A DNA stretch of 64,000 nt from Lachnospiraceae bacterium (lineage in GTDB: Bacteria > Bacillota > Clostridia > Lachnospirales > Lachnospiraceae): positions 14,591 to 78,590 of the forward strand of contig JAZQNB010000023.1 in the NCBI GenBank assembly GCA_045627085.1, written 5' to 3'. Below, piece by piece: positions 49,715 to 63,507 of the stretch (the first letter of the stretch is position 1; each line of letters begins with the position of its first letter). Both the position numbers and the translations under genes were made by a program. A model generated the notes under the pieces. It saw nothing but the letters and a program-made list of their open reading frames with translations. It was not told the origin of the DNA and did no database searches.

Positions 49715-49742
49715 CAATAAAACGAAAAGGGAGATGAGGGAT

Positions 49743-51935
49743 ATGCCGGACTTTATTATCGGAGAAAATGAATATGATGAAGAAAAAGCAGCTACTCTTG
49801 GTAACAGGTACCTGATCGGAAACGGATACATAGGAATCAGAGGTACCTTGGATGAGTATACCTCGGAACTGCTCCCTGCCATTAATCTGGCAGGTATATA
49901 TGACCGGGCCGGAGAGGGATGGAGAGAACCAATTAACCTTCCCAACGGTTGTTATACATACCTTAAGGTGGATGGCGAAATATATAAACTGCCGGACCGT
50001 CAGGCATCCGAACACCATGTAAAATTAAACTACAGATATGGTTTGTTCAGCAGACTGACAACCTGGCATACGGATAGAGGAAATATTTCTCTTATCGCGG
50101 AACGTTTTGCATCTATGGACAATGTTCATGTGATTGGCAATAAGTATACGGTAACAGCGGATTTTCATGCCGATGTAGAGCTTTTGACCGGTATAGACTG
50201 CGTAGTATGGGATTTAAACGGTCCTCATCTTGAAAGAGTGATAATGGAGGACAAGGGAGGAGACCTTTTGGTTCAGGCCTCAACTCATGAAGAAAAAAAA
50301 GCAATTGCCGTAGCAGAAACCGTTAAAGTTAGTTTCCCTGCGGAAGTAGGCCAGTTAATCAAAGGCGAAAAGATTTTACATAAGATTTCATTTGTAACAA
50401 AACCCGGCGAGGATTATACCGCACAGAAATGGGTAGTGATATATACATCAAACGATTGCCCTAATCCGGTTGGAAGTGCTATGGCCGGCTTAAATGAGTT
50501 GAAAGCTTCCTGCTATGAAGAACAGCTTGATGCACATAAATCAAAATGGGATGAGCTTTGGCTTCGTTCGGAGGTTACCATTGAAGGAGATGAAGAGGCT
50601 GACAGAGCATTGAATTATTCACTGTATCACCTTCATTCGATAGCACCAAGACATACAAAGAGCTTATCGATTCCCGCGAGAGGACTTTCAGGTCAGACAT
50701 ATAAGGGAGCAGTTTTCTGGGATACGGAAATGTTTATGCTTGATTTCTTTATGATGACAGATCCCGACACCGCGAGAACTCTGATGAGATACAGAATAGA
50801 CACCCTTGAAGGCGCATTGAAAAAAGCAAAGAGTTATGGCTTTGAAGGTGCATTTTATGCATGGGAAAGTCAGGAGGGCGGATATGATGCTTGCTCTGAT
50901 TATAACGTAACAGACGTATTCACCGGTCGTCCCATGAGGACCTTCTTCAAGGATAAACAGATGCACATCACTTCTGCTGTATGCTATGGAATTTGCAGAT
51001 ATGTAGACTGGACAGGCGATGAATCACTCTTAGATGAAAAAGGTGTAAAAACCATCATTGAATGTGCAAACTTCTACTACAGCCTGTTGCTTAAGTTTGC
51101 GAACAAAGACTATTATGAGCTTCATGACTGCATCGGACCCGATGAATATCATGAGAGAATAAACAATAATGCCTATACGAACCGTATGGCAAAATATACA
51201 TTTGAAAAAGCTGTGGAAGTAATTGAAAAAGCCATGAAAAACGGCACGCTTCCCGAGGGCTATGACGGCAAACGTCTTATGGCGAAATTTAACGATGCCG
51301 CATCAAATCTGTACATCCCCAAACCCTGTACAGATGAAAACGATAGTATCCATTCGGACGTAATCGAACAGTTTGACGGATACTTTAAATTAGAAGATGC
51401 AAGCTTATCAGAAGTTCGTGGAAGACTTCTCCACGAAAAAGAATATTGGGGTGGAGCATATGGCGTTGCAAGCCATACTCAGGTTATCAAGCAGGCGGAT
51501 GTAGTAACCATGCTTAATCTGTTCAGCGATGAATACGATGAAGAAATACTTCGAAAGAATTGGGAGTTCTATGAGCCCAGAACCGAGCATGGTTCTTCAC
51601 TGTCAGCTGGAATGTATTCAATGCTTGCCTGCAAAATTGGTGAGCCTGACAGAGCTTATCCTTTCTTTATCAAATCTGCTTCGGCAGATATTAAAGGTGG
51701 CGGAAAGGAATGGGCAGGACTTGTCTACATAGGCGGAACACATCCCGCAGCTGCCGGCGCTGCTTACATGACGGCAATAGAAGGCTTTGCCGGAGTGAGA
51801 ATTAAAAATGGCAAGCTTACCGTTAATCCCAGCCTTCCTAAGTCTATAAAAGGAATGCGCTTTAAGATTTTCCACATGGGAAAAGAATACGAGATTGAGA
51901 TTAAAGGCAATCTTGCACAGATTAATGAATGTTAA
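49743..51935 (+). CDS. GH65 alpha-glucoside phosphorylase, copy 2
   Basis: ~730 aa. 'GQTYKGAVFWDTE', 'CIGPDEYHERINNNAYTN', 'YEPRTEHGSSLS'. The ORF opens at ATG 49734; ATG 49743 is better spaced from AAGGGAG. Confidence 0.9.
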   Translation: MPDFIIGENEYDEEKAATLGNRYLIGNGYIGIRGTLDEYTSELLPAINLAGIYDRAGEGWREPINLPNGCYTYLKVDGEIYKLPDRQASEHHVKLNYRYGLFSRLTTWHTDRGNISLIAERFASMDNVHVIGNKYTVTADFHADVELLTGIDCVVWDLNGPHLERVIMEDKGGDLLVQASTHEEKKAIAVAETVKVSFPAEVGQLIKGEKILHKISFVTKPGEDYTAQKWVVIYTSNDCPNPVGSAMAGLNELKASCYEEQLDAHKSKWDELWLRSEVTIEGDEEADRALNYSLYHLHSIAPRHTKSLSIPARGLSGQTYKGAVFWDTEMFMLDFFMMTDPDTARTLMRYRIDTLEGALKKAKSYGFEGAFYAWESQEGGYDACSDYNVTDVFTGRPMRTFFKDKQMHITSAVCYGICRYVDWTGDESLLDEKGVKTIIECANFYYSLLLKFANKDYYELHDCIGPDEYHERINNNAYTNRMAKYTFEKAVEVIEKAMKNGTLPEGYDGKRLMAKFNDAASNLYIPKPCTDENDSIHSDVIEQFDGYFKLEDASLSEVRGRLLHEKEYWGGAYGVASHTQVIKQADVVTMLNLFSDEYDEEILRKNWEFYEPRTEHGSSLSAGMYSMLACKIGEPDRAYPFFIKSASADIKGGGKEWAGLVYIGGTHPAAAGAAYMTAIEGFAGVRIKNGKLTVNPSLPKSIKGMRFKIFHMGKEYEIEIKGNLAQINEC

Positions 51936-51955
51936 ATTCAAAAAACAAATATATA

Positions 51956-52966
51956 TTATAGCTGTTTGACACTTAAACGCTCCACCAATCTGGTGGAAAG
52001 AGTGATTTCGGTAGTATCCAGAGGCTTCCCGGATAATTGTTGGAGCATAAAGTCAACAGCGAGTCGTCCCTTTAAATTAAAGTCCTGGTGAATGGTTGTA
52101 AGAGGCGGGTCAACCAGTTGCGACAAAGTGATGTCATCGAAACCGACGATAGAAATATCCTCAGGTATTCTTTTACCCTTCTCTTTCAAAGCAGCCATTA
52201 TACCTGCGGCCATGATATCTGCGGAGACAACGAGACCTGTCATGTCAGGATGCTCAACTATGGATTTCACGCAGAGCTTACAGGAAGGAATATCCATTTC
52301 CTGCTGGAAAACCAGTCCTTTGTCAAAAGGAATTCCGGCATCCGCAAGGGCTGATTTATATCCCAGAAAACGTTCCTGCAAAACACCGCCGTCTTTGATG
52401 TTGGGCGATGCAAATCCGATTCTTTTATGGCCTTTGTCAATGAGATGTTTGGTTGCATTATAGCTTCCGTCAAAATCCTCCAAACCGACATTACAAAATC
52501 TGGGCGCATTGGCATAGGAGTCCAAAAGAACAACGGGAATGTTTAATCCGGAGAGGGAATCCAAAAATTTATCTTTGAAAATGCCTGTAAAGAACAGACC
52601 ATCCATATTCCAACGGGTTAGAAAGCGAACCAGTTCTTCAGCATTTTCAACAGTTCTAAGCATTAAGAAATAGCCATTTTCACGGAGCGTGGATTCGATG
52701 GCACCGATTACGGCAGAGTGAAAAGGATCTTCCATAAAGTTTGAATCATCTCGCGTAATTATATGGTTTACAAATCCAATCACCTTGGATGAACTGGAGA
52801 CCAGACTTCGCGCAGACATATTTGGAATATATCCAAGCTCCTTTATGGCATCGTTTATTTTCTGTATTGTTTCTGCAGATACACGTTTGTCTTTTCCGTG
52901 AATTACATTAGAAACTGTGGTGGCTGAAACGCCTGTAGCGTTTGCAATATCTCTGATGGTGACCAT
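51956..52966 (-). CDS. LacI-family transcriptional regulator
   Basis: N-terminal HTH 'VTIRDIANATGVSATTVSNVIHG' plus a Peripla_BP sugar-binding core. Convergent with the GH65 genes, with only a 20-bp gap. Confidence 0.9.
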   Translation of the reverse strand: MVTIRDIANATGVSATTVSNVIHGKDKRVSAETIQKINDAIKELGYIPNMSARSLVSSSSKVIGFVNHIITRDDSNFMEDPFHSAVIGAIESTLRENGYFLMLRTVENAEELVRFLTRWNMDGLFFTGIFKDKFLDSLSGLNIPVVLLDSYANAPRFCNVGLEDFDGSYNATKHLIDKGHKRIGFASPNIKDGGVLQERFLGYKSALADAGIPFDKGLVFQQEMDIPSCKLCVKSIVEHPDMTGLVVSADIMAAGIMAALKEKGKRIPEDISIVGFDDITLSQLVDPPLTTIHQDFNLKGRLAVDFMLQQLSGKPLDTTEITLSTRLVERLSVKQL

Positions 52967-53001
52967 GGCTTCTCCTTAGGGCTATTTTTTTTATACGATT
53001 C

Positions 53002-53015
53002 GTTTAACGTTTAAC
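53002..53015. promoter_or_regulatory. Third candidate operator, GTTTAACGTTTAAC, in the lacI/pgmB divergent intergenic region
   Basis: Shares GTTTAACGTT with the 43738 and 43871 sites. Lies 36 bp upstream of the LacI start and 105 bp upstream of pgmB. Confidence 0.4.
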
Positions 53016-53119
53016 TAAGTGTAATTATAAAGCAAATCAGGGGAAAAAAGCAATTGCAATTCCTGGTTTACATATAACTTTTTATTAATTTTAGCATATT
53101 AAGAATGGAGTAACAAGGA

Positions 53120-53770
53120 ATGATAAAAGGAATTATTTTTGATTTGGACGGAGTTTTGGTTTCAACCGACGAAATGCACTATCTTGCATGGAAAAAATTG
53201 GCAGATGACCTGGGAATAACAGGCTTTACCAAGGAAGATAATAAGCGTCAGCGTGGAGTAAGCCGTATGGCATCCCTTGAGGTAGTCCTTGAAAAATCTG
53301 ACAAAAAGTACACCGATGAGGAAAAATTAGAGCTGGCAGACAGAAAGAATAACTTCTATTTAGAGCTTTTAAAAACAATGGATGATTCTGCAGTATTAAA
53401 GGATGTTAAGCCCACACTTTCAGCTTTAAAGGAAAGAGGACTTATGCTTGCCCTCGGTTCTGCTTCAAAAAATGCACCTGCAATTATTGAGAAAACAGGA
53501 ATAGCACCTTATATGGATAAGGTGAGCTGTGGCCTTGATACTCAGAAATCAAAGCCCGATCCTGAAGTATTTTTGATTGCTGCAAAGAAGCTGGGACTTG
53601 ATCCTTCGGAATGTGTTGTGGTTGAGGATTCTCAGGCAGGAATAGATGCGGCAAAGGCAGGCGGATTTACATCCCTGGCAGTAGGTCCTTTTCATGATTC
53701 TATGGGAGCTGACTTTAATGCACCGCTTCTTTGTGAAGTAAACAATTGGGACGAAATCATCAACAGATGA
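53120..53770 (+). CDS. pgmB: Beta-phosphoglucomutase (HAD superfamily)
   Basis: 'IIFDLDGVLVSTDE' (DxDG nucleophile motif), 'GVSRMASLE', 'LGSASKNA', 'SKPDPEVFL', 'VVVEDSQAGIDAAKAGG'. Close resemblance to L. lactis beta-PGM as I recall it. Confidence 0.9.
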   Translation: MIKGIIFDLDGVLVSTDEMHYLAWKKLADDLGITGFTKEDNKRQRGVSRMASLEVVLEKSDKKYTDEEKLELADRKNNFYLELLKTMDDSAVLKDVKPTLSALKERGLMLALGSASKNAPAIIEKTGIAPYMDKVSCGLDTQKSKPDPEVFLIAAKKLGLDPSECVVVEDSQAGIDAAKAGGFTSLAVGPFHDSMGADFNAPLLCEVNNWDEIINR

Positions 53771-53822
53771 TTCAGCTATAAACAGACAAACTATATAATG
53801 TAAGAAAGAGGAGGAAATACTA

Positions 53823-55382
53823 TTGAAAAAGGTGGCAATTGGTTTGCAGTATGTACTCATGCTTGCTCTGATAGCAGCGGCAGTTTTAGCCGTTCCGGTT
53901 ATCAGGGAAAACAAAATTAAAGCGCAGGAGGCCTTAAAGCTTTCGAATGCGAAGGTTGTGCTCTATGACGGCCCCAAGACACTTAGAGATGCAACGGAGG
54001 AGGATTTAAAAAATACGGCGGAAAATAATCGTGATTTTTCGCTCCTTCATTGTACGGACACAATCGTTACGGTAAACGGTGAGGAGGCCTATGTGTATGA
54101 TACAAATGTCAATCATACCAGAAGCTGGGTTTCAAGCTACTATCCTCCACAGAGCAGAACTCCCATAACCTATTTTGATTTTGAGGGAACTGTGGAAATA
54201 TGTGTAACGGTACCCAATATTGATATTGAAACCGTAAAGATCAGTCCCTTATCATATGGAATTGAACCGGTGGTGGATGCAGATGCTCACACGGTTACCT
54301 TTAGGATTGACAATCCGGACAATTATACGCTTCAGTTTAACGCTTCTCCGGAACGTGCTCTTCATATTTTTGCTTTCCCTCTTGAAACAGAGGAAGAGCT
54401 TGCTGTCAGGAATGACCCTGCAACAATAGTGATTGAGCCCGGTGAGTGGAATATAGAAAATGTTTCTCTTTCAAGCGGGCAGACTCTTTATATCAGTGGC
54501 GGTGCGGTTGTACACGGAACGGTTTGTGCAAACTTTGCAAGTAAGATAACGGTAATGGGCCATGGTATTTTGGACGGCTCTAAAATAGAAGGCTGGAAGG
54601 GAACTACAGCTTACATTCCTTTGAAGTTTGACCACTGTTCAGAAGTTACACTAAAAGATATCATTGTCACCAACCCTAATGCATGGGTTGTACAGCAATA
54701 CGATTCCAAGGACGGAATAATTGACGGACTTAAGATTATTTCATCTCGTCCTAACGGCGACGGAATTTCCATGCAGTCAGCACAGAACTATGAGGTGAAG
54801 AATTGTTTTGTACGAAGCTGGGATGATTCACTTGTTGTTAAAAATTATGATACAAATTCAGAAAATCTTTATTTCCATGATATTCAGATATGGACTGATT
54901 TGGCTCAGTCAATGGAAATAGGGTTTGAAACCAACAAAGGTAAGAAGAATGATTCTTATATAAAGGATATCATCTTTGAAAATATAACCGTGTTGAATAA
55001 TTATCATAAGCCTGTTATCTCAGTTCACAATGCGGATGATGCCGCTCTTTCGGATATTCTTTTCAAGGATATAACGGTAGAACATGAGGAAATAGGCAGT
55101 GGGGATTCCAATTTGAAGTTCCTTATAGATATAGCTGTAGTAGAAAACTCTCAGTGGTCTTCTACATCTACAAGGGGAACCATTTCAAATGTTACTTTGG
55201 AAAATGTTAATTTTATCGAAGGTACGGAAAATGTATCACGAATCAGAGGCTTTGATACGACACATATGACTACTGACATTCATTTCAAGAATCTTACAAT
55301 GTTTGGAAAACAGATTCTTTCAGCTGAAGATGCAGGAATTAAAGTGGATGAGAACACAACATCAAATATCACTTTTGAGTAG
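53823..55382 (+). CDS. Membrane-anchored right-handed beta-helix glycosidase (GH28/GH49-like fold)
   Basis: TTG start 9 nt after AGGAGG. N-terminal TM or signal segment. 'RPNGDGISMQSAQNYEVKNCFVRSWDDSLVVKNY' resembles the NxDG..(G/W)DD motifs of parallel beta-helix glycosidases. Family assignment is tentative. Confidence 0.6.
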   Translation: MKKVAIGLQYVLMLALIAAAVLAVPVIRENKIKAQEALKLSNAKVVLYDGPKTLRDATEEDLKNTAENNRDFSLLHCTDTIVTVNGEEAYVYDTNVNHTRSWVSSYYPPQSRTPITYFDFEGTVEICVTVPNIDIETVKISPLSYGIEPVVDADAHTVTFRIDNPDNYTLQFNASPERALHIFAFPLETEEELAVRNDPATIVIEPGEWNIENVSLSSGQTLYISGGAVVHGTVCANFASKITVMGHGILDGSKIEGWKGTTAYIPLKFDHCSEVTLKDIIVTNPNAWVVQQYDSKDGIIDGLKIISSRPNGDGISMQSAQNYEVKNCFVRSWDDSLVVKNYDTNSENLYFHDIQIWTDLAQSMEIGFETNKGKKNDSYIKDIIFENITVLNNYHKPVISVHNADDAALSDILFKDITVEHEEIGSGDSNLKFLIDIAVVENSQWSSTSTRGTISNVTLENVNFIEGTENVSRIRGFDTTHMTTDIHFKNLTMFGKQILSAEDAGIKVDENTTSNITFE

Positions 55383-55393
55383 GAGGGGTAAAA

Positions 55394-56038
55394 ATGAAAA
55401 ATGTAAGAATAATACTGTTAATAGTTTTTGCCCTTGCGGCAGCAGGAATCTGGGGCTATGCGATTTCTTCAAAGCCCGCAGATGAAAACAGCGATTCCAA
55501 GGGTGATATTACCCTTGTAGCTACAACAGAACAGACTGAAATTGAGACCCCTTCATATTTTGTTGTGGAGGAATATGATCCGATTATTCCCGACGGAACC
55601 AATATTGCGGATTTGTCCAGATTTGATGCTTCCGGATACAATGACGTTTATCTTCCGGGTAAGGCAAAGGACGGAAAAACTGCCGGGGCTTCTTATTGGG
55701 AGGCTGCAGCAGATTCCTATCCTAATACGCTTACGGCCATTTTCCAGGAAAGCTTTAACGTTCATGCCGTTAAGCTCATGCTTTGTCCTCTGCCAATATG
55801 GGGAACCAGAATTCAGACCTTCTCAATTGAAGTATCTGAAGATGGCGAGAATTTTAAAGAAATCGTAGCCTCAGAGGACTATACCTTTGATCCTAAGACT
55901 GATAATGAGGTTGTTGTTGAGTTTGATGAAGTCAATATGAAATCTATCAGGCTTATTTTCACCCAAAATACCGGCGCAGTAGGGGCGCAGGTTGCAGAGT
56001 GGGAAATTTATTCCAACGATGACATTGCGTCGGAGTAA
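55394..56038 (+). CDS. Membrane-anchored discoidin (F5/8 type C, CBM32-like) domain protein
   Basis: N-terminal TM segment. C-terminus '..FNVHAVKLML..IQTFSIEVSEDGENFKEIV..MKSIRLIFTQNTGAVGAQVAEWEIYS' as in discoidin domains. Confidence 0.7.
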   Translation: MKNVRIILLIVFALAAAGIWGYAISSKPADENSDSKGDITLVATTEQTEIETPSYFVVEEYDPIIPDGTNIADLSRFDASGYNDVYLPGKAKDGKTAGASYWEAAADSYPNTLTAIFQESFNVHAVKLMLCPLPIWGTRIQTFSIEVSEDGENFKEIVASEDYTFDPKTDNEVVVEFDEVNMKSIRLIFTQNTGAVGAQVAEWEIYSNDDIASE

Positions 56039-56051
56039 ATAACTAATTGAC

Positions 56052-56087
56052 AAAAAACAACCTAAGAATTCCTTAGGTTGTTTTTTT
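56052..56087 (+). terminator. Strong rho-independent terminator closing the pgmB-glycosidase-discoidin unit
   Basis: caacctaag / cttaggttg stem, extended by A6/T7 arms, with a 5-nt loop and a T7 run. Confidence 0.7.
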
Positions 56088-56138
56088 ATATCCATTTTTG
56101 GGTTTCGCCGCCCATAAAACAATAAGAAAAGGAGAAAA

Positions 56139-56396
56139 ATGAGAATACTGGGAAAAAAGAGAGTCGAAGTATTAACTTCCATTGAAGCGTACGCTGCGTG
56201 CAGCCCTTCAACAGGCTGTGATTCAGATGTATTGTGTGCATGCGCCTGTCGTGAAAACAAAAAGAATGGCGGATATACCGTACGAAATGTATCGCTGCAG
56301 ACGACTAACTGCAAGATTGAGAATTCCGCTTACTGGTCAAATTATATCAAGAAAAACGGAAATTACAGTCCCTATAATTATAGTTGCAAAAGATAG
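56139..56396 (+). CDS. RiPP precursor peptide, Cys-rich, paralog 1 (85 aa)
   Basis: MRILGKKRVEVLTSIEAYAACSPSTGCDSDVLCACACRENKKNGGYTVRNVSLQTTNCKIENSAYWSNYIKKNGNYSPYNYSCKR. RBS AAGGAG. Has 7 Cys. Lies upstream of the rSAM/SPASM gene. Confidence 0.75.
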   Translation: MRILGKKRVEVLTSIEAYAACSPSTGCDSDVLCACACRENKKNGGYTVRNVSLQTTNCKIENSAYWSNYIKKNGNYSPYNYSCKR

Positions 56397-56427
56397 CGTT
56401 TGCTAAAACAAAGAAGAGGAGAAATAT

Positions 56428-56673
56428 ATGAAAAGAATAGGAAAGAAAAGAGAAACAGTATTAAGCTCTATTGAAGCTTATGCATCCTGCAGCCCTTCAA
56501 CAGGCTGTGATTCAGACTTTCTGTGTAAATGTAATTGTTCACATGGAGGAACAAGTGCGAGCATGGCACCTCCGCAGTCATCAAACTGCAAGATGGAGAA
56601 TTCCGCTTACTGGTCAAATTATATCAAAAATAACGGTAATTACAGCCCTTATAATTATGGTTGCAAGAGATAA
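56428..56673 (+). CDS. RiPP precursor peptide, Cys-rich, paralog 2 (81 aa)
   Basis: MKRIGKKRETVLSSIEAYASCSPSTGCDSDFLCKCNCSHGGTSASMAPPQSSNCKMENSAYWSNYIKNNGNYSPYNYGCKR. RBS AGAGGAG. Has 7 Cys at the same positions. Confidence 0.8.
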   Translation: MKRIGKKRETVLSSIEAYASCSPSTGCDSDFLCKCNCSHGGTSASMAPPQSSNCKMENSAYWSNYIKNNGNYSPYNYGCKR

Positions 56674-56699
56674 ATTGAGGTTGGTAAAAGGAATTTAGG

Positions 56700-56951
56700 A
56701 TGAAGCATTTAGGTAAAAAAAGACAGGCCATATTACAGTCAATTGAAGCTTATGCTACATGCAGTCCTTCAACAGGCTGTGACTCAGACTTCTTATGTAA
56801 GTGTAATTGTATTCATCATCAATCCAGCGCAAGTATGGCTCCTCCGCAAACAACTAATTGCAGAATGGAGGATTCAGCATATTGGGCAGATTATATTAAG
56901 CATAATGGTAATTATGCACCATATAACTATGCTTGCGTAAGAGGACATTAA
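56700..56951 (+). CDS. RiPP precursor peptide, Cys-rich, paralog 3 (83 aa)
   Basis: MKHLGKKRQAILQSIEAYATCSPSTGCDSDFLCKCNCIHHQSSASMAPPQTTNCRMEDSAYWADYIKHNGNYAPYNYACVRGH. Has 7 Cys at the same positions. Confidence 0.8.
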   Translation: MKHLGKKRQAILQSIEAYATCSPSTGCDSDFLCKCNCIHHQSSASMAPPQTTNCRMEDSAYWADYIKHNGNYAPYNYACVRGH

Positions 56952-56975
56952 AAAATTGTTTTTGGGCGGCGATTT

Positions 56976-56999
56976 ATCCGAGGCGGTAATTGCTCGGAT
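56976..56999 (+). terminator. Small hairpin between the precursor genes and the maturase gene (possible partial terminator or processing site)
   Basis: atccgag / ctcggat form a 7-bp stem with a 10-nt loop. There is no clear U-tail, so this is weak. Confidence 0.3.
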
Positions 57000-57023
57000 T
57001 ATTAAAAAGAAAAGGAGACAGTT

Positions 57024-58463
57024 ATGGAATGTAACAAACCAAATATTCACTTGTTCAGAACTTTGGGGGGATTCTATTTTTACGATGTAAACACATCAGG
57101 AATAGTAAGGGTAAATGAAAGCATTTATAATCTGTTAAAAGAAAACAGGGAGCCGGACAATGAAGAGGATGCAAAGAAGCTTGATATCCTTAAGAAGAAT
57201 GGTTTTTTGCTGGACAGATATCCGGATGAAATAAAACATCCGCAGACAGATTATATTGAAGATATATTAAATGACAGTATTGAAATGATAACATTGCAGG
57301 TTACGCAACAGTGCAATTTCAGATGTGAGTACTGCCCATATACTTTGGGAAAAGGGGACAGAAAACATTCAAATAAGAGGATGGATTTTGAAACTGCTAA
57401 AAGCGGAATTGATTTCTTCCTTTCACACTCGGGTAATGTTGATACTCCTGTTATCGGCTTTTATGGTGGAGAGCCTTTGCTGGAATTTAATATGATAAAA
57501 GACATCATAGAATATGCAGAGAAAAAAGCCGGAGGGAAACATCTGGGATTTACGTTTACAACAAACGGAAGCATGCTTACCGATGATAAAATCGAATATT
57601 TTATAGAGCATCAGGTAGTTGTAATGATAAGTCTGGACGGTCCTAAGGAGATTCAGGACAAAAACAGAAAGCTGGCCGGAAGCGGACAGGGTTCTTTTGA
57701 AAAAGTAATGGAAAACGTAATGCATCTGTATGAGAAATACCCGGATTATGTGAAGACGAACATTCAGTTTAATTCAGTAATAGATCCTGTAAACAATTTC
57801 GGATGCTTTAATGAATTCTTTATCAACGCAGAGGCCATTAACAATTCAAGCCTGTTAAAGACACAGGTATTGGAGAGCAAATACACTGACTATCATACTC
57901 AGGAAGCCAGAGAATTCTTTACGGCAAGAGAGGCTGAAATATGCAAGCTCTTCTTGTCAAAGCTTGGTAGATTTGATGAGGAAAAGGTTTCACCGCTTGT
58001 CAAACTCCAGTTTGATGAAATGATGGATAAATTCCATGGGAAAAGAAAACCGACGAACATGTTGCCGCTGGTTTCACATCCTTCAGGTCCGTGTGTTCCC
58101 GGAAGTGCAAGAATTTTCCTTAGCACAGACGGAGATTTCTTACCCTGTGAAAAGGTATCTGAAACATCCAAGGCTTTTGTAATCGGAAACATAGATACAG
58201 GTATTGACTTCGAAGCAGCAAAGAGGATGCTTAATATCAGTTCCATCATTGGAGAAACCTGTAAGAAATGTTGGGCATTTACCCAATGTGTATGCTGTGC
58301 TAACGGCTGTGAAGAGGGCGATGAGTTTTCACCCAAAAAGAAGCTTTCCGACTGTCAGTCAGTACGCGCTTTTATTGAAGAAGAAATGATCAATTATTGT
58401 ACACTTAAGGAGTTAGGCTGTGATTACACAGGCTACGGCTTTGACAATTATTTTGAAATATAG
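57024..58463 (+). CDS. Radical SAM / SPASM-domain peptide maturase with N-terminal RRE-like domain
   Basis: 'QQCNFRCEYCPY' (CxxxCxxC). 'GFYGGEPLL' (SAM-binding GGE). C-terminal auxiliary-cluster cysteines 'GPCVPGSARIFLSTDGDFLPCEK' (C..Gx4C) and 'CKKCWAFTQCVCCANGC'. The N-terminal ~85 aa 'GGFYFYDVNTSGIVRVNESIYNLLK' is typical of peptide-binding RRE modules of such maturases. Confidence 0.9.
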   Translation: MECNKPNIHLFRTLGGFYFYDVNTSGIVRVNESIYNLLKENREPDNEEDAKKLDILKKNGFLLDRYPDEIKHPQTDYIEDILNDSIEMITLQVTQQCNFRCEYCPYTLGKGDRKHSNKRMDFETAKSGIDFFLSHSGNVDTPVIGFYGGEPLLEFNMIKDIIEYAEKKAGGKHLGFTFTTNGSMLTDDKIEYFIEHQVVVMISLDGPKEIQDKNRKLAGSGQGSFEKVMENVMHLYEKYPDYVKTNIQFNSVIDPVNNFGCFNEFFINAEAINNSSLLKTQVLESKYTDYHTQEAREFFTAREAEICKLFLSKLGRFDEEKVSPLVKLQFDEMMDKFHGKRKPTNMLPLVSHPSGPCVPGSARIFLSTDGDFLPCEKVSETSKAFVIGNIDTGIDFEAAKRMLNISSIIGETCKKCWAFTQCVCCANGCEEGDEFSPKKKLSDCQSVRAFIEEEMINYCTLKELGCDYTGYGFDNYFEI

Positions 58464-58473
58464 GAGGCAGAGA

Positions 58474-59607
58474 ATGAGTTTATCGGGAAAAATTACGGTG
58501 TATCCTTACGACAGTGCGTTTACACCTATAGTAAGACACAAGACTTTACTTGGGGAACTTGAAATTGCTCATTTGGTTTCTCCTTTTTCCTTTGGTTATT
58601 GCGGAAAAGATGCAGGAGCTGCAGACCGCGGACCGGACACGGGATTGATTGTAGAGGAAGACTTTTCAGAGTGTATTAAGGACAGCGATTATGTACTGTT
58701 TGTACCTACTGAAGTAAAGTATGATTACGAGCAAATGATTGTTCCAAAGCTCGAGGAAGCTATAAATGCAGGCAAAAACATTATCATGTCGATTAAGCTT
58801 GCCAAAGAAAGATGTGATGAAATCAGCAGAAAATGTGAAGAAAAGAACACTTTATTCTATTACCTCAGATTAAAAGACTGGGAAAGTATTAAGCTTGATC
58901 CACCGGAATTATCTTCACACAGATTAAACAGAATAGATACACCCGTTGTATTTGTAATGGGAGACGGTGAAAGAACAGGAAAATTTGAGACACAGTTAGC
59001 ACTCAGAGAATTTTTCCTGAAAGAAGGCTACAAGGTAAGCCAGATAGGCTCCAGAGATTATTGCGAGTTGCTTGGATTCAGGTCTGCTCCGGGATTTCTT
59101 TTCGAGCCCAGGCTTGAAATGGAGAAAATCTTCCTATTCAATGAGTATGTAAAGAATATTGAGCTTTATGAAAAGCCGGATGTTATTATCATTGGTATTC
59201 CCGGTTCAATTATGGCATTAAACAAGAGTAATTCAACATATTGCGGAATTACGGCATTCGAGATATCAAATGCAATATCACCTGATGCGACAGTATTTTG
59301 CATGTACGATATCAGCTGGGATATTAAGTACTATGAGGAGCTTAAGCAGGTAATGAAGCATAAATTCGGATTTGAACCTGATGCTTTTGTAATGAGCAAC
59401 ACCAGGATAGACTGGATGGGTATGGCCGAGAAACGAAACAGAATGTATATTTTTACTCTTGCAGAAGAAAAAGTGAATGCACATAGAAATATGCTTCAGA
59501 TGCACGGAATAGAAGCGGTTAATATTCTGGATGCTACAGATGCACGGAAAATGTGTGAGACAGTAGAGGACAAACTTGCTTCATATGCCGATGTCGACAG
59601 CTTTTAG
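58474..59607 (+). CDS. Peptide-maturation partner protein of unknown function (two Rossmann-like halves; P-loop-like 'GDGERTGK')
   Basis: 377 aa. ATG 58474 lies 7 nt after AGGAGG; the ORF is open from 58420. I recognise no catalytic family. Tightly packed between the rSAM and ACP-like genes. Confidence 0.7.
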   Translation: MSLSGKITVYPYDSAFTPIVRHKTLLGELEIAHLVSPFSFGYCGKDAGAADRGPDTGLIVEEDFSECIKDSDYVLFVPTEVKYDYEQMIVPKLEEAINAGKNIIMSIKLAKERCDEISRKCEEKNTLFYYLRLKDWESIKLDPPELSSHRLNRIDTPVVFVMGDGERTGKFETQLALREFFLKEGYKVSQIGSRDYCELLGFRSAPGFLFEPRLEMEKIFLFNEYVKNIELYEKPDVIIIGIPGSIMALNKSNSTYCGITAFEISNAISPDATVFCMYDISWDIKYYEELKQVMKHKFGFEPDAFVMSNTRIDWMGMAEKRNRMYIFTLAEEKVNAHRNMLQMHGIEAVNILDATDARKMCETVEDKLASYADVDSF

Positions 59608-59620
59608 GAGGAAATGACAA

Positions 59621-59869
59621 ATGAGTGTTTACGAAAGATTACGAAAGGTTTTTTTACAGAGAACAGAACTGGATTTAGATAATGTTATCGACCCCTATAA
59701 CAACTTGTCATTACATGACCCATTGTTTAATTTTTCCGCTTCTGATATGCTGTATATATTCTTTGACGTGGAAAAAGAATTTGGTATTACAATACCTGAA
59801 GAAGCTATAGAGAAGAATGAAATCTTTACCATAAACGGGTTGATTAAAACAATTACGGAGCAAATGTAA
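59621..59869 (+). CDS. Acyl-carrier-protein-like small protein
   Basis: 82 aa. '..FNFSASDMLYIFFDVEKEFGITIPEEAIEK..' aligns with ACP helix II/III ('[27 protein letters not shown]'). The canonical D-S-L is replaced by S-A-S-D-M-L. Confidence 0.65.
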   Translation: MSVYERLRKVFLQRTELDLDNVIDPYNNLSLHDPLFNFSASDMLYIFFDVEKEFGITIPEEAIEKNEIFTINGLIKTITEQM

Positions 59870-61689
59870 TGAAGAAAATTCTTTCGAAAATGAGTGGAAT
59901 CGGAAAAAGCATAGAGTTTGGCATGAGAGTATCTTTGGAAGCCTCAAAGCATTTAATGGTACAAAGAGTGTTGTATCAGTTGCTTTTGGCTGCAATACCC
60001 TCCTGTACGGCGTACCTTACCAAGCTTTTACTCGACACTCTGTCCGAAAGCAGTAATATTAAGGCATTTCGCCCCGTCATACTGCTCCTTGCAGCTTATT
60101 TCGTATTAAGAGTGTTGCAGGAGGTGATTTCAAAACTGTCTGAAAGCACTTCCGCTCTTCATCAGGATAAAATCAGCAACATGATAGATGTGAAGCTTAT
60201 GAGTCAGAGCAACCGACTGGATATTTCCTATTTCGATTCGCCCGAATGCTACGATGAAGCATATAATGCCAGGATTGATTCCGGAGCACTTAGTGTAATG
60301 ACATGGAGCATTATTAGTATGCTGGGAAGCTTTCTCAGCTTTATTATTGCTCTGGTTGTCATGCTAAAATGCAATGTAATATTTACAATTGTTCTCATAG
60401 CACTCAGCATACCTTCTGTCATAGTAGAAAGAAATTATTCTCAGAAGATGTATAATTGGAGCAGAGAATGCGCACCGATTTTTAGGAAAATGGGTTATCT
60501 TTCATCGATTGCCACAGACAGAGGGTTTGCAAAAGACATCCGTATATTTGGAATATATGACTACATAAGGGAGAAACATCAGAATTTATGGGCTGCGTGG
60601 TACACAGAAAAGAAAGAGTGGACTCTTAAGAAGCTGTTAATAGTAACACTTATTTCGATTCTGCCGGAAATCGGCATCCTGGGCATTCTGATATATGTAT
60701 GCTATCAAATATGGCAGGGTAGCATGAGCATAGGAGATTTCACCTTTGTTTCCGGTATGACCTTCCAACTGATAGGGGCTGTTTGGACAATGATTTACGG
60801 TCTTGTTCAAATATATGAGAATAATTTAAAAATAACAAATTACTCCAAATTCCTTAGCAGAGAAGCCTTGGTTAAGAACGATGGAACCCTTGAACCGTCA
60901 GAACATCCCCAAATTGAATTTAAGGATGTTTCCTTCAGGTATCCGTCCACAGATAATTATGTGTTAAAAAATGTCAGTTTTAATATAAAGCCGGGAGAAA
61001 AGATAGCATTTGTAGGTGAAAACGGATCCGGAAAAACTACAATTGTGAAGCTGTTACTGCGACTTTATGATGTCACCGAAGGTGCTATTATGATTGACGG
61101 TGTCAACATAAAGGACATGGAGCTTAATAAATTACGCAGAATGTATTCAGTGATGTTCCAGGATTATAATCAATATGCCTTCTCCGTGGATGAAAACATC
61201 AGACTTTCAGATATTAATGATACGGATTATGAACAAAAGCTGAAGGAATCAAAAGAATATTTTGAAATTGATAAACTGTGCAAAAAGCATAACATTACGG
61301 GCGATACATATTTAACCAGACAATTTGAAGAAAACGGAGTTGAACTCTCCGGAGGTGAATGGCAAAAAATAGCTCTTGCGAGGGCATATTTTAAACGAGG
61401 CTCCATGCTGATACTCGATGAGCCCAATGCAGCGTTGGACCCCGCGGCCGAAGACAGAGTATTTAAAAGCATTACCTCGTTATATGCAGAAAACAGTGCC
61501 ATATTAATTTCACACAGATTATCAAATGTGATTATGGCAGACAGGATTTTTTATATAGAAAACGGGACTATTACAGAGTCAGGCAGTCATGATGAATTGT
61601 TAAAAAGCAAAGGCGGCTATGCCAGACTGTTCAATTTGCAGGCAGAGAAATACGTAAGGAGTTTAAATGAGAATTGCGATAATAGATGA
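59869..61689 (+). CDS. ABC exporter (fused TMD-NBD, type I exporter; no N-terminal C39 peptidase domain)
   Basis: 606 aa. Six-TM N-terminal half. Walker A 'GENGSGKTT', signature 'LSGGEWQKIALARA', Walker B 'MLILDEP'. Its start overlaps the ACP-like stop (TAATG). Confidence 0.9.
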   Translation: MKKILSKMSGIGKSIEFGMRVSLEASKHLMVQRVLYQLLLAAIPSCTAYLTKLLLDTLSESSNIKAFRPVILLLAAYFVLRVLQEVISKLSESTSALHQDKISNMIDVKLMSQSNRLDISYFDSPECYDEAYNARIDSGALSVMTWSIISMLGSFLSFIIALVVMLKCNVIFTIVLIALSIPSVIVERNYSQKMYNWSRECAPIFRKMGYLSSIATDRGFAKDIRIFGIYDYIREKHQNLWAAWYTEKKEWTLKKLLIVTLISILPEIGILGILIYVCYQIWQGSMSIGDFTFVSGMTFQLIGAVWTMIYGLVQIYENNLKITNYSKFLSREALVKNDGTLEPSEHPQIEFKDVSFRYPSTDNYVLKNVSFNIKPGEKIAFVGENGSGKTTIVKLLLRLYDVTEGAIMIDGVNIKDMELNKLRRMYSVMFQDYNQYAFSVDENIRLSDINDTDYEQKLKESKEYFEIDKLCKKHNITGDTYLTRQFEENGVELSGGEWQKIALARAYFKRGSMLILDEPNAALDPAAEDRVFKSITSLYAENSAILISHRLSNVIMADRIFYIENGTITESGSHDELLKSKGGYARLFNLQAEKYVRSLNENCDNR

Positions 61690-62293
61690 TGGTGTAAATC
61701 CCGAATACATTGCGAACAATGCAGTAGTTCTGTCGGTGAAAGTGGATGACGATCGACAAGTAGTTCAGACCGTTTACGACAGCGACAGACCGATTTCACA
61801 TGGAACGATATGTGCAATGATAATCGATAAATACTGCAGGGATGTTAATTTGGTCAGTATAAAGGTCCTGGATGAAAAGACCGACCGCGGAGAACTGTAC
61901 CGACTCATAAACGCAATTGACTGGTGTTCCCAAAATGATATTCAAATCATTAATTTGAGTTTGGGCTCAACATATCCAAAAGATTTTAAATTTATAAAAA
62001 AGGCAGTGAAACGAGCCATAAAGAATAATATTACCATTGTGGCGGCCACCGCAAATCGAAATGAAAAGGCATATCCTGCCTGCATGAAAAAAGTCATCGG
62101 CGTAAGAAAAAAGGAAGCTTTGCCATTTGAACAAACAGGCAGACAGTCCGGGATAGATGTAGAAGAACAATCAGTTCATCTTCTGAATTTGCCGGATGGT
62201 AATTCCTTTATGACACCGCCATCCAACAGCTTTGCCGCCGCATATGTTACGGCACTTACGGTAAATGAAAGCATTATAAATGGAAAAGCATAA
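61667..62293 (+). CDS. Minimal S8 (subtilisin-like) peptidase, cytoplasmic (no signal peptide), 208 aa
   Basis: Asp 'IAIIDDGV', His 'SHGTICA', oxyanion 'NLSLG', Ser context 'SNSFAAAYV' (compare GTSxAAPxV). Overlaps the ABC gene by 23 nt. RBS AAGGAG. Confidence 0.7.
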   Translation: MRIAIIDDGVNPEYIANNAVVLSVKVDDDRQVVQTVYDSDRPISHGTICAMIIDKYCRDVNLVSIKVLDEKTDRGELYRLINAIDWCSQNDIQIINLSLGSTYPKDFKFIKKAVKRAIKNNITIVAATANRNEKAYPACMKKVIGVRKKEALPFEQTGRQSGIDVEEQSVHLLNLPDGNSFMTPPSNSFAAAYVTALTVNESIINGKA

Positions 62294-62323
62294 CAGTGAA
62301 AATTGTTATGCTTTTCTTTTTTT
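62284..62323 (+). terminator. Rho-independent terminator closing the RiPP operon
   Basis: aaaagcataaca / tgttatgctttt stem with an 8-nt loop, followed by ttttcttttttt. The stop codon lies within the stem. Confidence 0.7.
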
Positions 62324-62553: not shown

Positions 62554-63507
62554 ATGGCAAAAGTTAAGAATAAATCAACAATGATAACTGCCGGAAGAAA
62601 AAAAACATTTTTATTGTCTACCATGGTATTACCGGGTGTAATCTGGTTGCTGCTGGTCAGATACCTTCCTATGTTTGGCATTGTAATTGCTTTTCAGGAT
62701 TATAAAATTTTTTATAAAAATCCCAGTGTTATTAATAACGTGTTACATAGTAAATTTGTGGGATTACATAATTTTGAGTTTCTGTTTAAAACATCAGATT
62801 CATGGATAATGGTCAGAAACACTTTACTTTATAATATAGTGTTTATTTTATTGGGATTAGTTATTTCGGTTACCTTCGCAATAATGATTAATGAGATTAC
62901 TTCCAAGTTTATGGCGAAGGCATATCAGACGATGATGTTTTTCCCATATTTTATGAGTTGGGTAGTCGCGTCATATTTCTTAAATGCTTTTTTGGATCCG
63001 ACAAATGGATTGATTCCTACATTGCAGGCCGGTGCCGGTAAAACACCTACTGATTTCTATAATACATTGGCACCGTGGCCGTTTTTACTGGTGTTGTGTA
63101 ATGTTTGGAAACAAACAGGATATTCGACAATACTTTATCTGGCAGCTATTACCGGTATCGATGCTTCACAATATGAGGCAGCTGCAATTGACGGAGCCAG
63201 CAAATGGCAACAGGTAAAGTACGTTACATTACCCCATTTAAAGCAAATGATTATCATTTTATTTATTATGAATGTTGGCAAGATATTCAATTCTGACTTT
63301 GGATTATTCTTTACAGTACCTAATCAGTCAGGAACCTTAATTCCTGTAACACAGACAATTGATACATATGTTTATCGTGGCTTAACTTCGATTTCATACG
63401 GTATGAATACTGCGGCCGGATTATTACAGAACATAGTCGGTTTTATTGTAATCATGATAGCTAATTCTATAGTAACAAAGATTGAACCGGAAAGTGCATT
63501 GTTCTGA
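62554..63507 (+). CDS. Carbohydrate ABC transporter permease (LplB/MalF-like)
   Basis: EAA loop 'QYEAAAIDGASKWQQVKYVTLPHLK'. Six TM segments. RBS CAGGAG. Confidence 0.85.
   Translation: MAKVKNKSTMITAGRKKTFLLSTMVLPGVIWLLLVRYLPMFGIVIAFQDYKIFYKNPSVINNVLHSKFVGLHNFEFLFKTSDSWIMVRNTLLYNIVFILLGLVISVTFAIMINEITSKFMAKAYQTMMFFPYFMSWVVASYFLNAFLDPTNGLIPTLQAGAGKTPTDFYNTLAPWPFLLVLCNVWKQTGYSTILYLAAITGIDASQYEAAAIDGASKWQQVKYVTLPHLKQMIIILFIMNVGKIFNSDFGLFFTVPNQSGTLIPVTQTIDTYVYRGLTSISYGMNTAAGLLQNIVGFIVIMIANSIVTKIEPESALF

Follow-up and report, generated by a model that had tools for sequence, protein, structure and literature searches.

What do the eight co-directional genes at positions 56139 to 62293 of a 64,000-nucleotide stretch of Lachnospiraceae DNA (hereafter the window) produce, and do they form a system that had escaped description? 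The original prediction took them for a self-contained radical-SAM RiPP operon of a genome-context system defined in TIGRFAM/NCBIfam, and the HMM families agree: TIGR04065, TIGR04068 and TIGR04066 are matched above their curated cut-offs, and TIGR04069 is clearly homologous, just under its cut-off. Calling this the most likely undescribed system was an overstatement, since the CcpM/CLI_3235 system goes back, according to papers that cite the work, to an in silico definition by Haft and Basu in 2011 (cited in PMC7343975, PMC9062424), has thousands of members, and is covered by NCBIfam models in routine annotation use. The recurrent order of the core genes in related loci, together with a TIGR04066 partner family of about 2,500 clusters at 50% identity, likewise indicates that the locus adds a new member to a known kind that NCBI annotates, and is not an undescribed system. 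The belief that no biological activity had been reported is wrong at the family level: the SacP23 cluster of Paenibacillus polymyxa, which unites a CLI_3235 precursor with TIGR04068, TIGR04066, TIGR04069, S8 and ABC genes, yields on expression in B. subtilis an exported, heat-stable and protease-sensitive peptide that is active against Gram-positive bacteria; its N-terminus is blocked, its mass falls about 1 kDa short of the predicted one, and it elutes late, at 60-70% acetonitrile (PMC10731318).

The sequence shows the locus to be an intact, single-operon member of this system. All eight ORFs are intact and lie on the + strand, with intergenic gaps of 31, 26, 72, 10 and 13 nt followed by two overlaps of the translational-coupling type: a TAATG overlap between the genes for the ACP-like protein and the ABC exporter (59867-59871), and a 23-nt overlap between the exporter and S8 genes (61667-61689). 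Strong ribosome-binding sites were seen at all three genes inspected (partner, ACP-like and S8). The 5' boundary of the unit is the intrinsic terminator of the upstream gene (56052..56087, + strand), a 15-bp perfect stem followed by a T-run, whose folding energy of -17.5 kcal/mol (z -5.3) was equalled by 0 of 200 shuffles; the 3' boundary is an intrinsic terminator with a 16-bp stem and a T-run (62282..62317, + strand; -22.4 kcal/mol, z -6.9), which was also recovered by a pattern scan and in which the S8 stop codon is embedded. ORF coordinates and folding thus agree with where the genes, the two overlaps and the terminators on either side had been placed earlier. A pattern scan found no sigma-70 consensus promoter in the 51 nt that precede precursor 1, and there is no immunity gene within the operon. 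Of 80 related loci compared for synteny, all 80 carry the radical SAM gene, 75 an ACP-like gene, 74 precursors, 62 an ABC exporter and 45-47 S8; the CcpM homologue adjoins the partner in every one, the order precursor, radical SAM, partner, ACP-like is nearly universal, and any further gene family is found in 12 of the 80 at most.

The three precursors (85 aa, 56139-56396; 81 aa, 56428-56673; 83 aa, 56700-56951; all on the + strand) score 27.7, 31.7 and 29.0 bits against TIGR04065 (CLI_3235), for which the cut-off is 26 bits. Precursors 1 and 3 are 67% and 74% identical to precursor 2, the closest database relative of which (P0238) shows 61% identity over 98% of the length. Each consists of a basic 18-aa leader (MRILGKKRVEVLTSIEAY, MKRIGKKRETVLSSIEAY and MKHLGKKRQAILQSIEAY, respectively) ending in a near-invariant E-A-Y, and a core of 67, 63 or 65 aa with seven Cys; the leader is 18 aa long in 84 of 88 precursors, and E16, A17 and Y18 are each conserved at 90% or more. 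Such small ORFs had been expected to be kept beside homologous maturases, and Cys-rich ORFs with the same leader were found in 74 of the 80 loci. Family cores carry their Cys within the first third, often in CxC-type repeats, and end in a Cys-free tail (S 18%, N 11%, Y 9%, T 9%) that is poor in Asp/Glu (D 3.6%). The window cores, with five Cys clustered N-terminally and two distal ones, belong to a rare subtype (63-67 aa, 7 Cys), an observation that is new. Hairpin sactipeptides classically have Cys clustered at the N-terminus and a tail free of Cys, and the arrangement seen here is the donor/acceptor one of such peptides. The three paralogues retain all seven Cys and are nearly identical in their C-terminal 34 residues, which argues for purifying selection.

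The enzyme that follows (479 aa, 57024-58463, + strand; Pfam Radical_SAM) is the radical SAM/SPASM peptide maturase CcpM, matching TIGR04068 over its full length at 539.9 bits (E 5e-162; cut-off 500 bits). Two of the hallmarks attributed to it stand, namely the CxxxCxxC motif (C97/C101/C104) and seven SPASM-type Cys (C357, C375, C413, C416, C422, C425, C444), invariant in 79 of 79 homologues; the RRE-like N-terminus does not have direct HMM support, as HMM searches gave no match to a PqqD/RRE model or to the Pfam SPASM model, and is supported solely by the way the enzyme aligns over its full length with families of other peptide maturases. Among relatives of solved structure the best match is CteB (5wgg, E 3e-33), which forms thioethers. 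An anaerobic sulfatase maturase, the identity that had been named as a challenge to a peptide-modifying role, was rejected (91 bits against a cut-off of 349).

The partner (377 aa, 58474-59607, + strand) scores 360.6 bits against TIGR04066, a 'peptide maturation system protein' family with a cut-off of 200 bits. The mechanical ORF opens at GTG 58420; ATG 58474 is preferred because an AGGAGG ribosome-binding site lies 6 nt upstream and the family HMM begins there. The earlier description of a protein without a recognizable catalytic family is right by sequence and wrong by fold: the AF2 model (pLDDT 89.3, pTM 0.90) matches 2obn (E 4e-13), 2g0t and 7xrj in Foldseek, and the partner is predicted to have a two-domain DUF1611/DgcN-like fold with degenerate nucleotide-binding motifs, which is also new. 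Some 14 of its polar residues are invariant or nearly so, among them E166, K170, Q174, R178, Y186, K187, S189, Q190, C197, E198, H203 and D271. The next protein (82 aa, 59621-59869, + strand) is related to TIGR04069 (63.1 bits, E 2.6e-17; cut-off 70 bits), and its model matches E. coli ACP (1l0i) with a TM of 0.80 and an rmsd of 1.9 A. A further new finding is that its phosphopantetheine Ser is absent: the AcpP Ser36 column is Ala40 in the window protein, and of 79 relatives 48 have Pro there, 27 Ala (75 with one or the other) and 4 Ser, which argues that this ACP-fold protein is probably not an acyl carrier. Across the related loci, no phosphopantetheinyl transferase, acyl-ACP/acyl-CoA ligase, fatty-acid gene or other biosynthetic gene is conserved. 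Both results weaken the claim that the partner and the ACP-like protein point to more chemistry than a plain sactipeptide would need.

The ABC exporter (606 aa, 59869-61689, + strand; Pfam ABC_tran, ABC_membrane) fuses transmembrane and ATPase domains and, as foreseen, is without a C39 domain: a Pfam search gave no Peptidase_C39 match, and its alignments to NCBIfam models of peptidase-containing bacteriocin exporters begin at profile position ~145-153, past the peptidase domain. The last gene (61667-62293, + strand), preceded by an AAGGAG ribosome-binding site, encodes a minimal cytoplasmic subtilisin-like protein of 208 aa (Pfam Peptidase_S8) that is the predicted leader peptidase; its best NCBIfam match is QhpE (96.9 bits, below the cut-off of 165). 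It begins directly at the catalytic Asp strand (MRIAIIDDG), so that neither a signal peptide nor a prodomain can precede it. His45 aligns with residue 63 (chain numbering) of subtilisin BPN', in the SHGT motif of the catalytic His, and the motifs ATAN and SNSFAA served to assign Asn130 and Ser188. Only two homologues (L034 and L063) are of similar length, and in both D7/H45/N130/S188 are identical. An S8 homologue occurs in 45 related loci; in 43 of these the protein is 380-570 aa long (569, 544 and 511 aa in the closest relatives, L001, L002 and L003), and its C-terminal extension is a fused paralogue of the partner (hhalign 97.1%, E 7.5e-11; also E 1.2e-10), a new observation which suggests that the partner docks the peptidase. 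The window S8 does not have this near-universal domain, so leader removal might be impaired or different here. The partner's conserved polar residues are lost in the fused paralogue, which indicates that selection on them is specific to the free partner.

Taken as a whole, the locus is, in our judgment, fairly probably explained best by leader-guided thioether cross-linking, cleavage after EAY, and ABC export. Three paralogous precursors would be made, each with its basic leader and Cys-rich core, and the leader would dock on CcpM, which, through a 5'-deoxyadenosyl radical and auxiliary Fe-S clusters, would link Cys sulfurs to acceptor carbons in the Ser/Asn/Tyr/Thr/Ala/Gly-rich C-terminal half of the core; the putative outcome is a thioether-stapled hairpin, and the two extra Cys of the window subtype may give a double hairpin like that of ruminococcin C. 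The TIGR04066 protein and the Ser-less ACP-fold protein would act as obligate accessory subunits of the maturation complex, and not as a phosphopantetheine acyl-carrier system. The S8 peptidase would then cut the leader after Tyr18, a site suggested by the invariance of the motif and by the fact that subtilisins prefer aromatic residues at P1, and the C39-less transporter would export the product, probably, by analogy with SacP23, a heat-stable bacteriocin against Gram-positive bacteria. We infer that the links are thioethers, at which carbon they form (C-alpha versus C-beta/gamma) and which residues they connect, because the open-access literature searched contained no solved product structure or cross-link chemistry for any CcpM system, in line with the original prediction. 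Several observations also count against the pathway: the missing sigma-70 consensus, RRE match and S8 domain; the partner's invariant K170, C197, E198 and H203, which resemble an active or ligand site and not a passive scaffold; and the blocked N-terminus and ~1 kDa deficit of SacP23, which hint at further, unexplained processing (PMC10731318).

The least unlikely alternative, though a doubtful one, keeps the same pathway and makes CcpM a ranthipeptide- or QhpD-type enzyme that joins Cys-S to C-beta or C-gamma instead of forming a C-alpha sactionine. CteB, the best solved homologue, is the thermocellin maturase; PapB (164.7 bits) and QhpD (159.9 bits) match the maturase substantially; and, with QhpE the best family of S8, the trio of radical SAM enzyme, small S8 and ABC protein mirrors QhpD/QhpE/QhpF, which in the qhp operon serve quinohemoprotein amine dehydrogenase maturation. 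However, the top characterized families after CcpM are of the sactisynthase type (RumMC 212.7 bits, lachnocin maturase 210.4 bits), the tails are poor in the Asp/Glu acceptors preferred by PapB and QhpD, and the Cys layout is that of a sactipeptide hairpin. We think it unlikely that, in the spirit of the original prediction, a second and new chemistry comes from the partner and the ACP-like protein and makes the product a new RiPP class in place of a plain thioether peptide; the DgcN-like protein might, for example, cap the N-terminus or transfer an acyl group, or a Cys/His/Glu site might trim the C-terminal tail. The partner does match DUF1611 proteins over its whole fold, the N-acetyltransferase DgcN among them (7xrj, E 7.7e-11), its many invariant polar residues (E166 to D271) are under selection specifically in the free protein, and it accompanies CcpM in all 80 loci; but its Walker A is without GK[ST], an invariant Gly stands where Walker B has its Asp, Pfam DUF1611_C matches below threshold (20.9 against 25 bits), and the phosphopantetheine Ser and the genes that would serve it are missing. 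Blocked N-termini, moreover, are common among ordinary sactipeptides. That of SacP23, like its late elution and unexplained mass, is nevertheless a point in favor of a second chemistry (PMC10731318).

That this copy is decaying or no longer makes a product seems quite improbable. Such decay would fit an S8 shorter than those of nearly all relatives, the closest included, a stop codon inside the terminator, the promoter scan, and eight proteins that are all singleton clusters at 90%, seen once in public data; yet the reading frames, ribosome-binding sites, coupling-type overlaps and conserved precursor paralogues all speak for an intact unit, the S8 catalytic residues are kept, QhpE-type peptidases work at about 219 aa (the profile length), and about 30 of the related loci lack any S8 gene in the vicinity. 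More improbable still is a role of the products as Cys-rich metal-binding or signaling peptides instead of antibiotics, for which one could cite the seven Cys per core, the CxC-type repeats of the family, the missing immunity gene and the 3-5 loci of CcpM type held by several genomes. Against it, SacP23, the only tested member, is antibacterial (PMC10731318), self-protection can come from the ABC exporter, and a radical SAM/SPASM enzyme with a leader peptidase and an exporter is the standard bacteriocin set.

The eight-gene operon at 56139-62293 (plus strand) belongs, as a new and divergent representative, to the CcpM/CLI_3235 system, a RiPP family already catalogued and annotated by NCBI, and has rare long-core precursors and an unusually minimal peptidase. 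The radical SAM/SPASM maturase scores 539.9 bits against the CcpM equivalog model TIGR04068 (cut-off 500, E 5.1e-162), residues 8-467 aligning with profile positions 2-462 of 462; the three precursors, with 27.7, 31.7 and 29.0 bits, all pass the cut-off of 26 for the CLI_3235 model TIGR04065, and the partner protein reaches 360.6 bits against TIGR04066 (cut-off 200). The original prediction had named these three families correctly. It had also named an ACP-related family; the ACP-like protein is a clear relative of TIGR04069 (E 2.6e-17 over 76 of 77 profile positions) but, at 63.1 bits, narrowly misses the curated cut-off of 70; the gene occupies the same operon position as its homologues in 75 of the 80 related loci described below and the protein aligns with those homologues, and it is a divergent TIGR04069 relative rather than a non-member. 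An anaerobic sulfatase maturase, the identity that had been named in advance as speaking against the operon reading, is ruled out for the radical SAM enzyme by a score of 91.2 bits against TIGR03942 (cut-off 349), so this check does not refute the operon reading. The claim that this was the most likely undescribed system in the window, with an unknown partner and an ACP-like protein, was set too high: the system is already catalogued, and the locus is one unstudied case of it rather than a system of a new kind.

The observed layout—eight co-directional ORFs with two overlaps, bracketed by terminators—is real. Precursors 1, 2 and 3 (56139-56396, 56428-56673 and 56700-56951) are followed by the genes for CcpM (57024-58463, 479 aa), the partner (from ATG 58474, 377 aa), the ACP-like protein (59621-59869, 82 aa), the ABC exporter (59869-61689, 606 aa) and the S8 peptidase (61667-62293, 208 aa), all on the plus strand. 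Successive genes are spaced by 31, 26, 72, 10 and 13 nt, and the final two junctions overlap, as TAATG between the ACP-like and ABC genes and by 23 nt between the ABC and S8 genes. The 10-nt spacing between the CcpM and partner genes depends on the choice of start codon: a mechanical ORF beginning at GTG 58420, which overlaps the 3' end of the maturase gene by 44 nt, was rejected in favor of ATG 58474, almost certainly the true start because it has an AGGAGG site, coincides with the beginning of the family HMM and yields a 377-aa product that the public protein collection also contains.

Strong terminators lie on both sides of the operon: the 5' hairpin (56052-56087) folds with -17.5 kcal/mol (z -5.3) and the 3' hairpin (62282-62317), which contains the S8 stop codon, with -22.4 kcal/mol (z -6.9), and for neither did any of 200 shuffles fold as well. 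Only 51 nt (56088-56138) separate the upstream terminator from the ATG of precursor 1, and no sigma-70-type promoter was found in that interval; a perfect TTGACA is located at 56047-56052, directly ahead of the terminator stem, and lacks a matching -10 box. A small hairpin (AUCCGAG...CUCGGAU, 56976-57000) without a T-run lies inside the 72-nt gap between precursor 3 and the maturase gene; it could tune the precursor-to-enzyme ratio, but is not significant against shuffles (z -1.4). Carbohydrate-utilization genes are found on both sides (47447-56038 and 62554-63507), comprising upstream two GH65 glycoside phosphorylases, a LacI-family regulator (minus strand), a HAD hydrolase, a GH28-like protein and an F5/8 type C domain protein, and downstream a sugar ABC permease. 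The GC content of the operon (0.37-0.40) is barely different from that of its flanks and gives no signal of horizontal transfer.

A search with a profile of the partner family yielded 122 genomic relatives, and 80 loci were kept for comparison. A CcpM homologue is present in all 80, an ACP-related ORF in 75, precursors with the same leader in 74 (86 ORFs), an ABC exporter in 62 and an S8 peptidase in 45-47. The order precursor, maturase, partner, ACP-like protein (and S8 peptidase) is nearly universal, with the ABC gene on either side; the exact order of the window is seen in five loci. No further conserved gene family occurs in more than 12 of the 80 loci, and the window is therefore complete as regards the canonical set. 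In a comparison of the partner profile with 1.84 billion representative proteins, a threshold of E<=1e-3 gave 2,494 matched clusters (roughly 2,500, defined at 50% identity) and one of E<=1e-30 gave 1,088, which makes the system a large one. The hosts belong mostly to the Clostridia (Ruminiclostridium, Clostridium, Herbinix, Lachnospiraceae, Vallitalea), among them gut, rumen, soil and cellulolytic kinds, and to Paenibacillus, with Halodesulfovibrio and a Caulobacteraceae MAG as outliers. All eight proteins of the operon are singletons at 90% identity in an exact-match look-up, and the closest homologues, from Herbinix and Lachnospiraceae MAGs, are about 50-54% identical. The window shares with other CcpM/CLI_3235 loci the four signature families, the ABC exporter and S8 peptidase, the core gene order and the leader motif, and differs from them in its three precursors, its 63-67 aa cores with two extra Cys, and a 208-aa S8 peptidase without a fused paralogue.

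The leader is 18 aa long in 84 of 88 precursors and follows the consensus M-K-K-L-G-K-K-x5-E-T-I-E-A-Y, in which conservation reaches 90% or more at each of E16, A17 and Y18. Cores in the family have a median length of 42 aa, with 4-7 Cys in the first third and a Cys-free tail rich in Ser, Asn, Tyr, Thr, Ala and Gly. The cores in the window are the longest in the set, and combine five clustered Cys (C-SPSTG-C-DSDxL-C-x-C-x-C) with two further distal Cys in a conserved C-terminal module (..NC-K-x-EN-SAYW..NGNYSPYNY-x-C.., of the general pattern NC-x-x-EN...YW...NG..SPY..C). Among the loci compared and the matches listed, this long-core subtype is otherwise found only in three loci (L001-L003) and in one database protein (P0238, 61% identity). 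The cores of precursors 1 and 2 diverge strongly in their middle stretch but are nearly identical over the last ~34 residues, which argues that the tail is functional. Most loci have a single precursor gene, in contrast to the three in tandem here. A precursor profile search of a large protein database gave at least 24 matches, and the P. polymyxa precursor is not among the matches listed. A Pfam model for the CLI_3235-type precursors seems to exist already, as the window's precursors and the database proteins P0236-P0256 carry the precomputed tag PF27803.1; a local Pfam-A copy that does not include PF27803.1 gave no precursor match.

In CcpM, the CxxxCxxC motif (C97-NFR-C101-EY-C104) is invariant in 79 of 79 homologues, and the protein matches Pfam Radical_SAM with 66.6 bits. 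The seven SPASM cysteines, of the pattern that holds two auxiliary [4Fe-4S] clusters, C357-x17-C375 (G-x4-C), C413-x2-C416-x5-C422-x2-C425 and C444, are all present in the same 79 of 79, and C261 is nearly invariant (77/79). The Pfam SPASM HMM has no match in CcpM, including when the C-terminus is scanned alone; the region aligns with the SPASM regions of CteB and anSME. CteB is also the best solved relative (E 3e-33, with the radical SAM core and SPASM region aligned), followed by anSME. The N-terminal ~85 aa are conserved in the family and are covered when the whole protein is aligned with the maturase models of RumMC, lachnocin, nif11 and the ScfB-related type; Pfam PqqD/RRE gives no match at E<=10, also when the N-terminus is scanned by itself. 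After CcpM itself, the family scores are 212.7 bits for RumMC (the second-best match, far from the cut-off of 720), 210.4 for the lachnocin maturase, 179.2 for the nif11 maturase, 164.7 for PapB, 159.9 for QhpD and 143.8 for the SCIFF maturase. RumMC, PapB, QhpD and the SCIFF maturase are characterized, thioether-forming enzymes.

By sequence, the partner-family profile matches solved structures at chance level only (best E 0.17). An AlphaFold2 model (pLDDT 89.3, pTM 0.90), as compared by Foldseek, finds 2obn (E 4e-13, TM 0.62), 2g0t (E 2.9e-12) and 7xrj (E 7.7e-11) over the full length; taken separately, the N-domain resembles DapB and the C-domain dethiobiotin synthetase, ArsA and SRP-type P-loop folds. 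As modeled, the partner is a two-domain protein of the DUF1611/DgcN fold, with a Rossmann-like N-domain and a P-loop-like C-domain as in DUF1611 (2obn, 2g0t) and the D-glutamate N-acetyltransferase DgcN (7xrj), at TM 0.54-0.62. It differs from these proteins in sequence (11-14% identity) and in an entirely different genomic context, and its match to Pfam PF07755 (DUF1611_C), 39 residues in the P-loop region, scores 20.9 bits and lies under the gathering threshold of 25. The P-loop also departs from theirs: the partner has the motif G-x-x-E-R-T-x-K-F with an invariant Lys170, without a conserved Gly before the Lys and without Ser/Thr after it. Hydrolysis of NTP appears unlikely, as there is no GK[S/T] and the Walker-B-like PDVIIIGIPGG has an invariant Gly at the expected Asp position. 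About 14 polar residues, including C197, E198 and H203, are invariant or nearly so, which argues for a specific site in the protein.

The ACP-like protein is predicted to have the four-helix ACP fold: its single-sequence AlphaFold2 model (pLDDT 82.4) superimposes on E. coli butyryl-ACP (1l0i) with TM 0.80 and rmsd 1.9 A, and the top 35 Foldseek matches are acyl- or D-alanyl-carrier proteins. It is acidic, as is AcpP of E. coli, and differs from it at the beginning of helix II, where Ala stands in place of the phosphopantetheine Ser. Profile alignment to AcpP (hhalign, 92.9% probability) places Ser36 opposite Ala40, with which the modeled helix II begins. In 79 family sequences (the window and 78 homologues) this column contains Pro 48 times, Ala 27 times and Ser 4 times, and neither adjacent column has a conserved Ser; a conserved Arg-Asp pair follows the position (R in 60/79, D in 68/79). 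ACP equivalog models all score far below their cut-offs, and the related loci have no conserved neighboring gene for a phosphopantetheinyl transferase or for acyl activation. A true acyl-carrier system is rejected on the Ala40 of this protein and the Pro/Ala in 75 of 79 family members. With the phosphopantetheine Ser absent and no transferase or acyl-activating gene conserved, the likeliest role of the protein is that of a docking or adaptor subunit rather than of a carrier. Its net charge is -8 (family median -5), the leaders have a median of +2, and binding of the leader by this protein is a speculative suggestion.

The S8 peptidase matches Pfam Peptidase_S8 with 50.6 bits (threshold 21.8) and has neither signal peptide nor prodomain. 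It carries the Asp/His/Ser triad and the oxyanion Asn of subtilases as Asp7, His45 (SHGT), Asn130 (ATAN) and Ser188 (SNSFAA), the last two assigned from motifs; His45 aligns with residue 63 (chain numbering) of subtilisin BPN', in the catalytic-His SHGT motif. All four are identical in the aligned homologues of similar length, of which there are only two (L034 and L063). The best family match is QhpE (NF049966), at 96.9 bits and under the equivalog cut-off of 165. QhpE is the small subtilisin-like leader peptidase of the qhp operon, which acts with the radical SAM enzyme QhpD and the ABC exporter QhpF in maturing the gamma subunit of quinohemoprotein amine dehydrogenase. The operon is similar to qhp in that an ABC exporter and a small cytoplasmic S8 peptidase (~210-220 aa) accompany a radical SAM/SPASM enzyme, all directed at a Cys-containing peptide. 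It differs in having no dehydrogenase subunits and no QhpG, in a product that is a free peptide and not an enzyme subunit, and in scores below the equivalog cut-offs, that for QhpD being 453; the peptidase is QhpE-like in size and layout, not an equivalog. No C39 domain is present in the exporter: it aligns with the bacteriocin cleavage/export models TIGR01193 and TIGR03796 from profile positions 153 and 145 onward, and there is no Peptidase_C39 Pfam match.

In 43 of the 45 related loci with an S8 peptidase, the enzyme is 380-570 aa long (for example L003:12233-13768, L001:5883-7592 and L008:1992-3638). The long form ends in a C-terminal extension that is paralogous to the partner (hhalign 97.1%, E 7.5e-11, 244 columns) and degenerate, the partner's conserved polar residues having been lost. 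This fusion, of which we met no description in the literature consulted, is Rosetta-stone evidence for a physical association of the peptidase with the partner. The partner-like domain is absent from the 208-aa peptidase of the window and the 205-aa peptidase of L063. A separate copy of the lost domain elsewhere in the window was considered and rejected: a profile of the extension finds the partner gene alone (E 1.2e-10), so the window's peptidase has simply lost the domain.

The CcpM/CLI_3235 system was defined in silico by Haft and Basu in 2011, as cited in PMC7343975 and PMC9062424, and CcpM is listed as 'previously annotated', apart from the 'known' enzymes (PMC9062424). A five-gene version, without a precursor, was noted in Roseburia intestinalis in 2015 (PMC4573289). 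The one experimental study found among open-access papers and bioRxiv preprints concerns SacP23 of Paenibacillus polymyxa #23, whose whole cluster was expressed in B. subtilis; the peptide is heat-stable, protease-sensitive and active against S. aureus (including MRSA), B. cereus and VRE, and has an m/z of 3404 against a predicted 4455 and a blocked N-terminus, with no structure reported (PMC10731318). In the same literature, to mid-2026, neither a product structure nor the chemistry of the cross-links nor a function of the accessory proteins turned up for any CcpM system. Assignment of m/z 3404 by way of the P. thiaminolyticus precursor at locus L064 was set aside, as several fragments fit within 30 Da and L064 is not SacP23. 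The system is large and routinely annotated, with one member active against MRSA.

From these parts, we infer that CcpM would bind the leader and form multiple Cys-to-carbon thioethers, most likely sactionine-type hairpin staples and in the window possibly a double hairpin; the partner and ACP-like subunits would assist as a complex, the S8 peptidase would cut after EAY, and the ABC transporter would export a product that is probably a bacteriocin. The sactipeptide systems (ruminococcin C/RumMC, subtilosin A/AlbA, thurincin H/ThnB) also use a radical SAM/SPASM enzyme, theirs with an N-terminal peptide-binding region that CcpM may share, and hairpin sactipeptides have the core layout proposed here, Cys donors toward the N-terminus and acceptors toward the C-terminus. 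The C-alpha thioether is a feature of sactipeptides and for CcpM only a putative one, and beta or gamma linkages, a sub-variant of the same model, are possible, if not the reading we would choose. Of the ranthipeptide maturases, CteB (thermocellin) is the best solved relative and PapB (freyrasin) is among the families matched; both fall below family cut-offs, the window's precursors have no similarity to theirs, and the tails are poor in Asp/Glu acceptors. Sactipeptide clusters differ, too, in lacking TIGR04066 or ACP-fold partners and in that the leader is usually removed by other peptidases. These two proteins, and the kept polar residues of the partner, are what an additional chemistry performed by the pair would explain; the missing carrier Ser and the degraded P-loop speak against it, and we consider such chemistry somewhat unlikely.

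A more specific proposal, which we hold to be unlikely, is that the TIGR04066 protein and its Ser-less ACP-fold companion catalyze or direct a phosphopantetheine-independent modification, making the CcpM products a structurally new RiPP class; candidate modifications would be a DgcN-like N-terminal capping, or tail processing at the invariant Cys197/Glu198/His203/Lys170 site, and the 7-Cys long-core subtype of the window would, if this were true, be a double-stapled variant of that class. Decay of the locus, to which the shortened peptidase might point, is improbable for an operon with eight intact ORFs, retained S8 catalytic residues and near-identical precursor tails, and a non-antibiotic role for the products is more improbable still, given the activity of SacP23. 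The thioether-stapled bacteriocin remains our preferred reading, and the operon, being intact, compact and provided with three substrates, is a convenient test case. To a specialist the locus would be no surprise, and it is a good experimental entry point to the CcpM products and to the roles of TIGR04066 and TIGR04069; the analysis sharpens the picture in that the 'ACP' cannot simply be taken for a carrier, a DUF1611/DgcN fold is predicted for the partner, and the peptidase is normally tethered to a partner paralogue.

Outside Bacillota, the full system occurs on the Halodesulfovibrio aestuarii chromosome (L065) and in the Caulobacteraceae MAG (L080), with maturase, partner, ACP-like protein and long S8 peptidase, and with a precursor in L065; this suggests horizontal spread or, for the MAG, contamination. 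Several CcpM loci can share one genome, three to five of them in the cases observed, as seen for L004, L007, L014, L052 and L056 (MAG OH_HFB_289) and in Ruminiclostridium cellobioparum DSM 1351 (L053, L068 and L073), and up to four tandem precursors are found per locus (L033 and L074).
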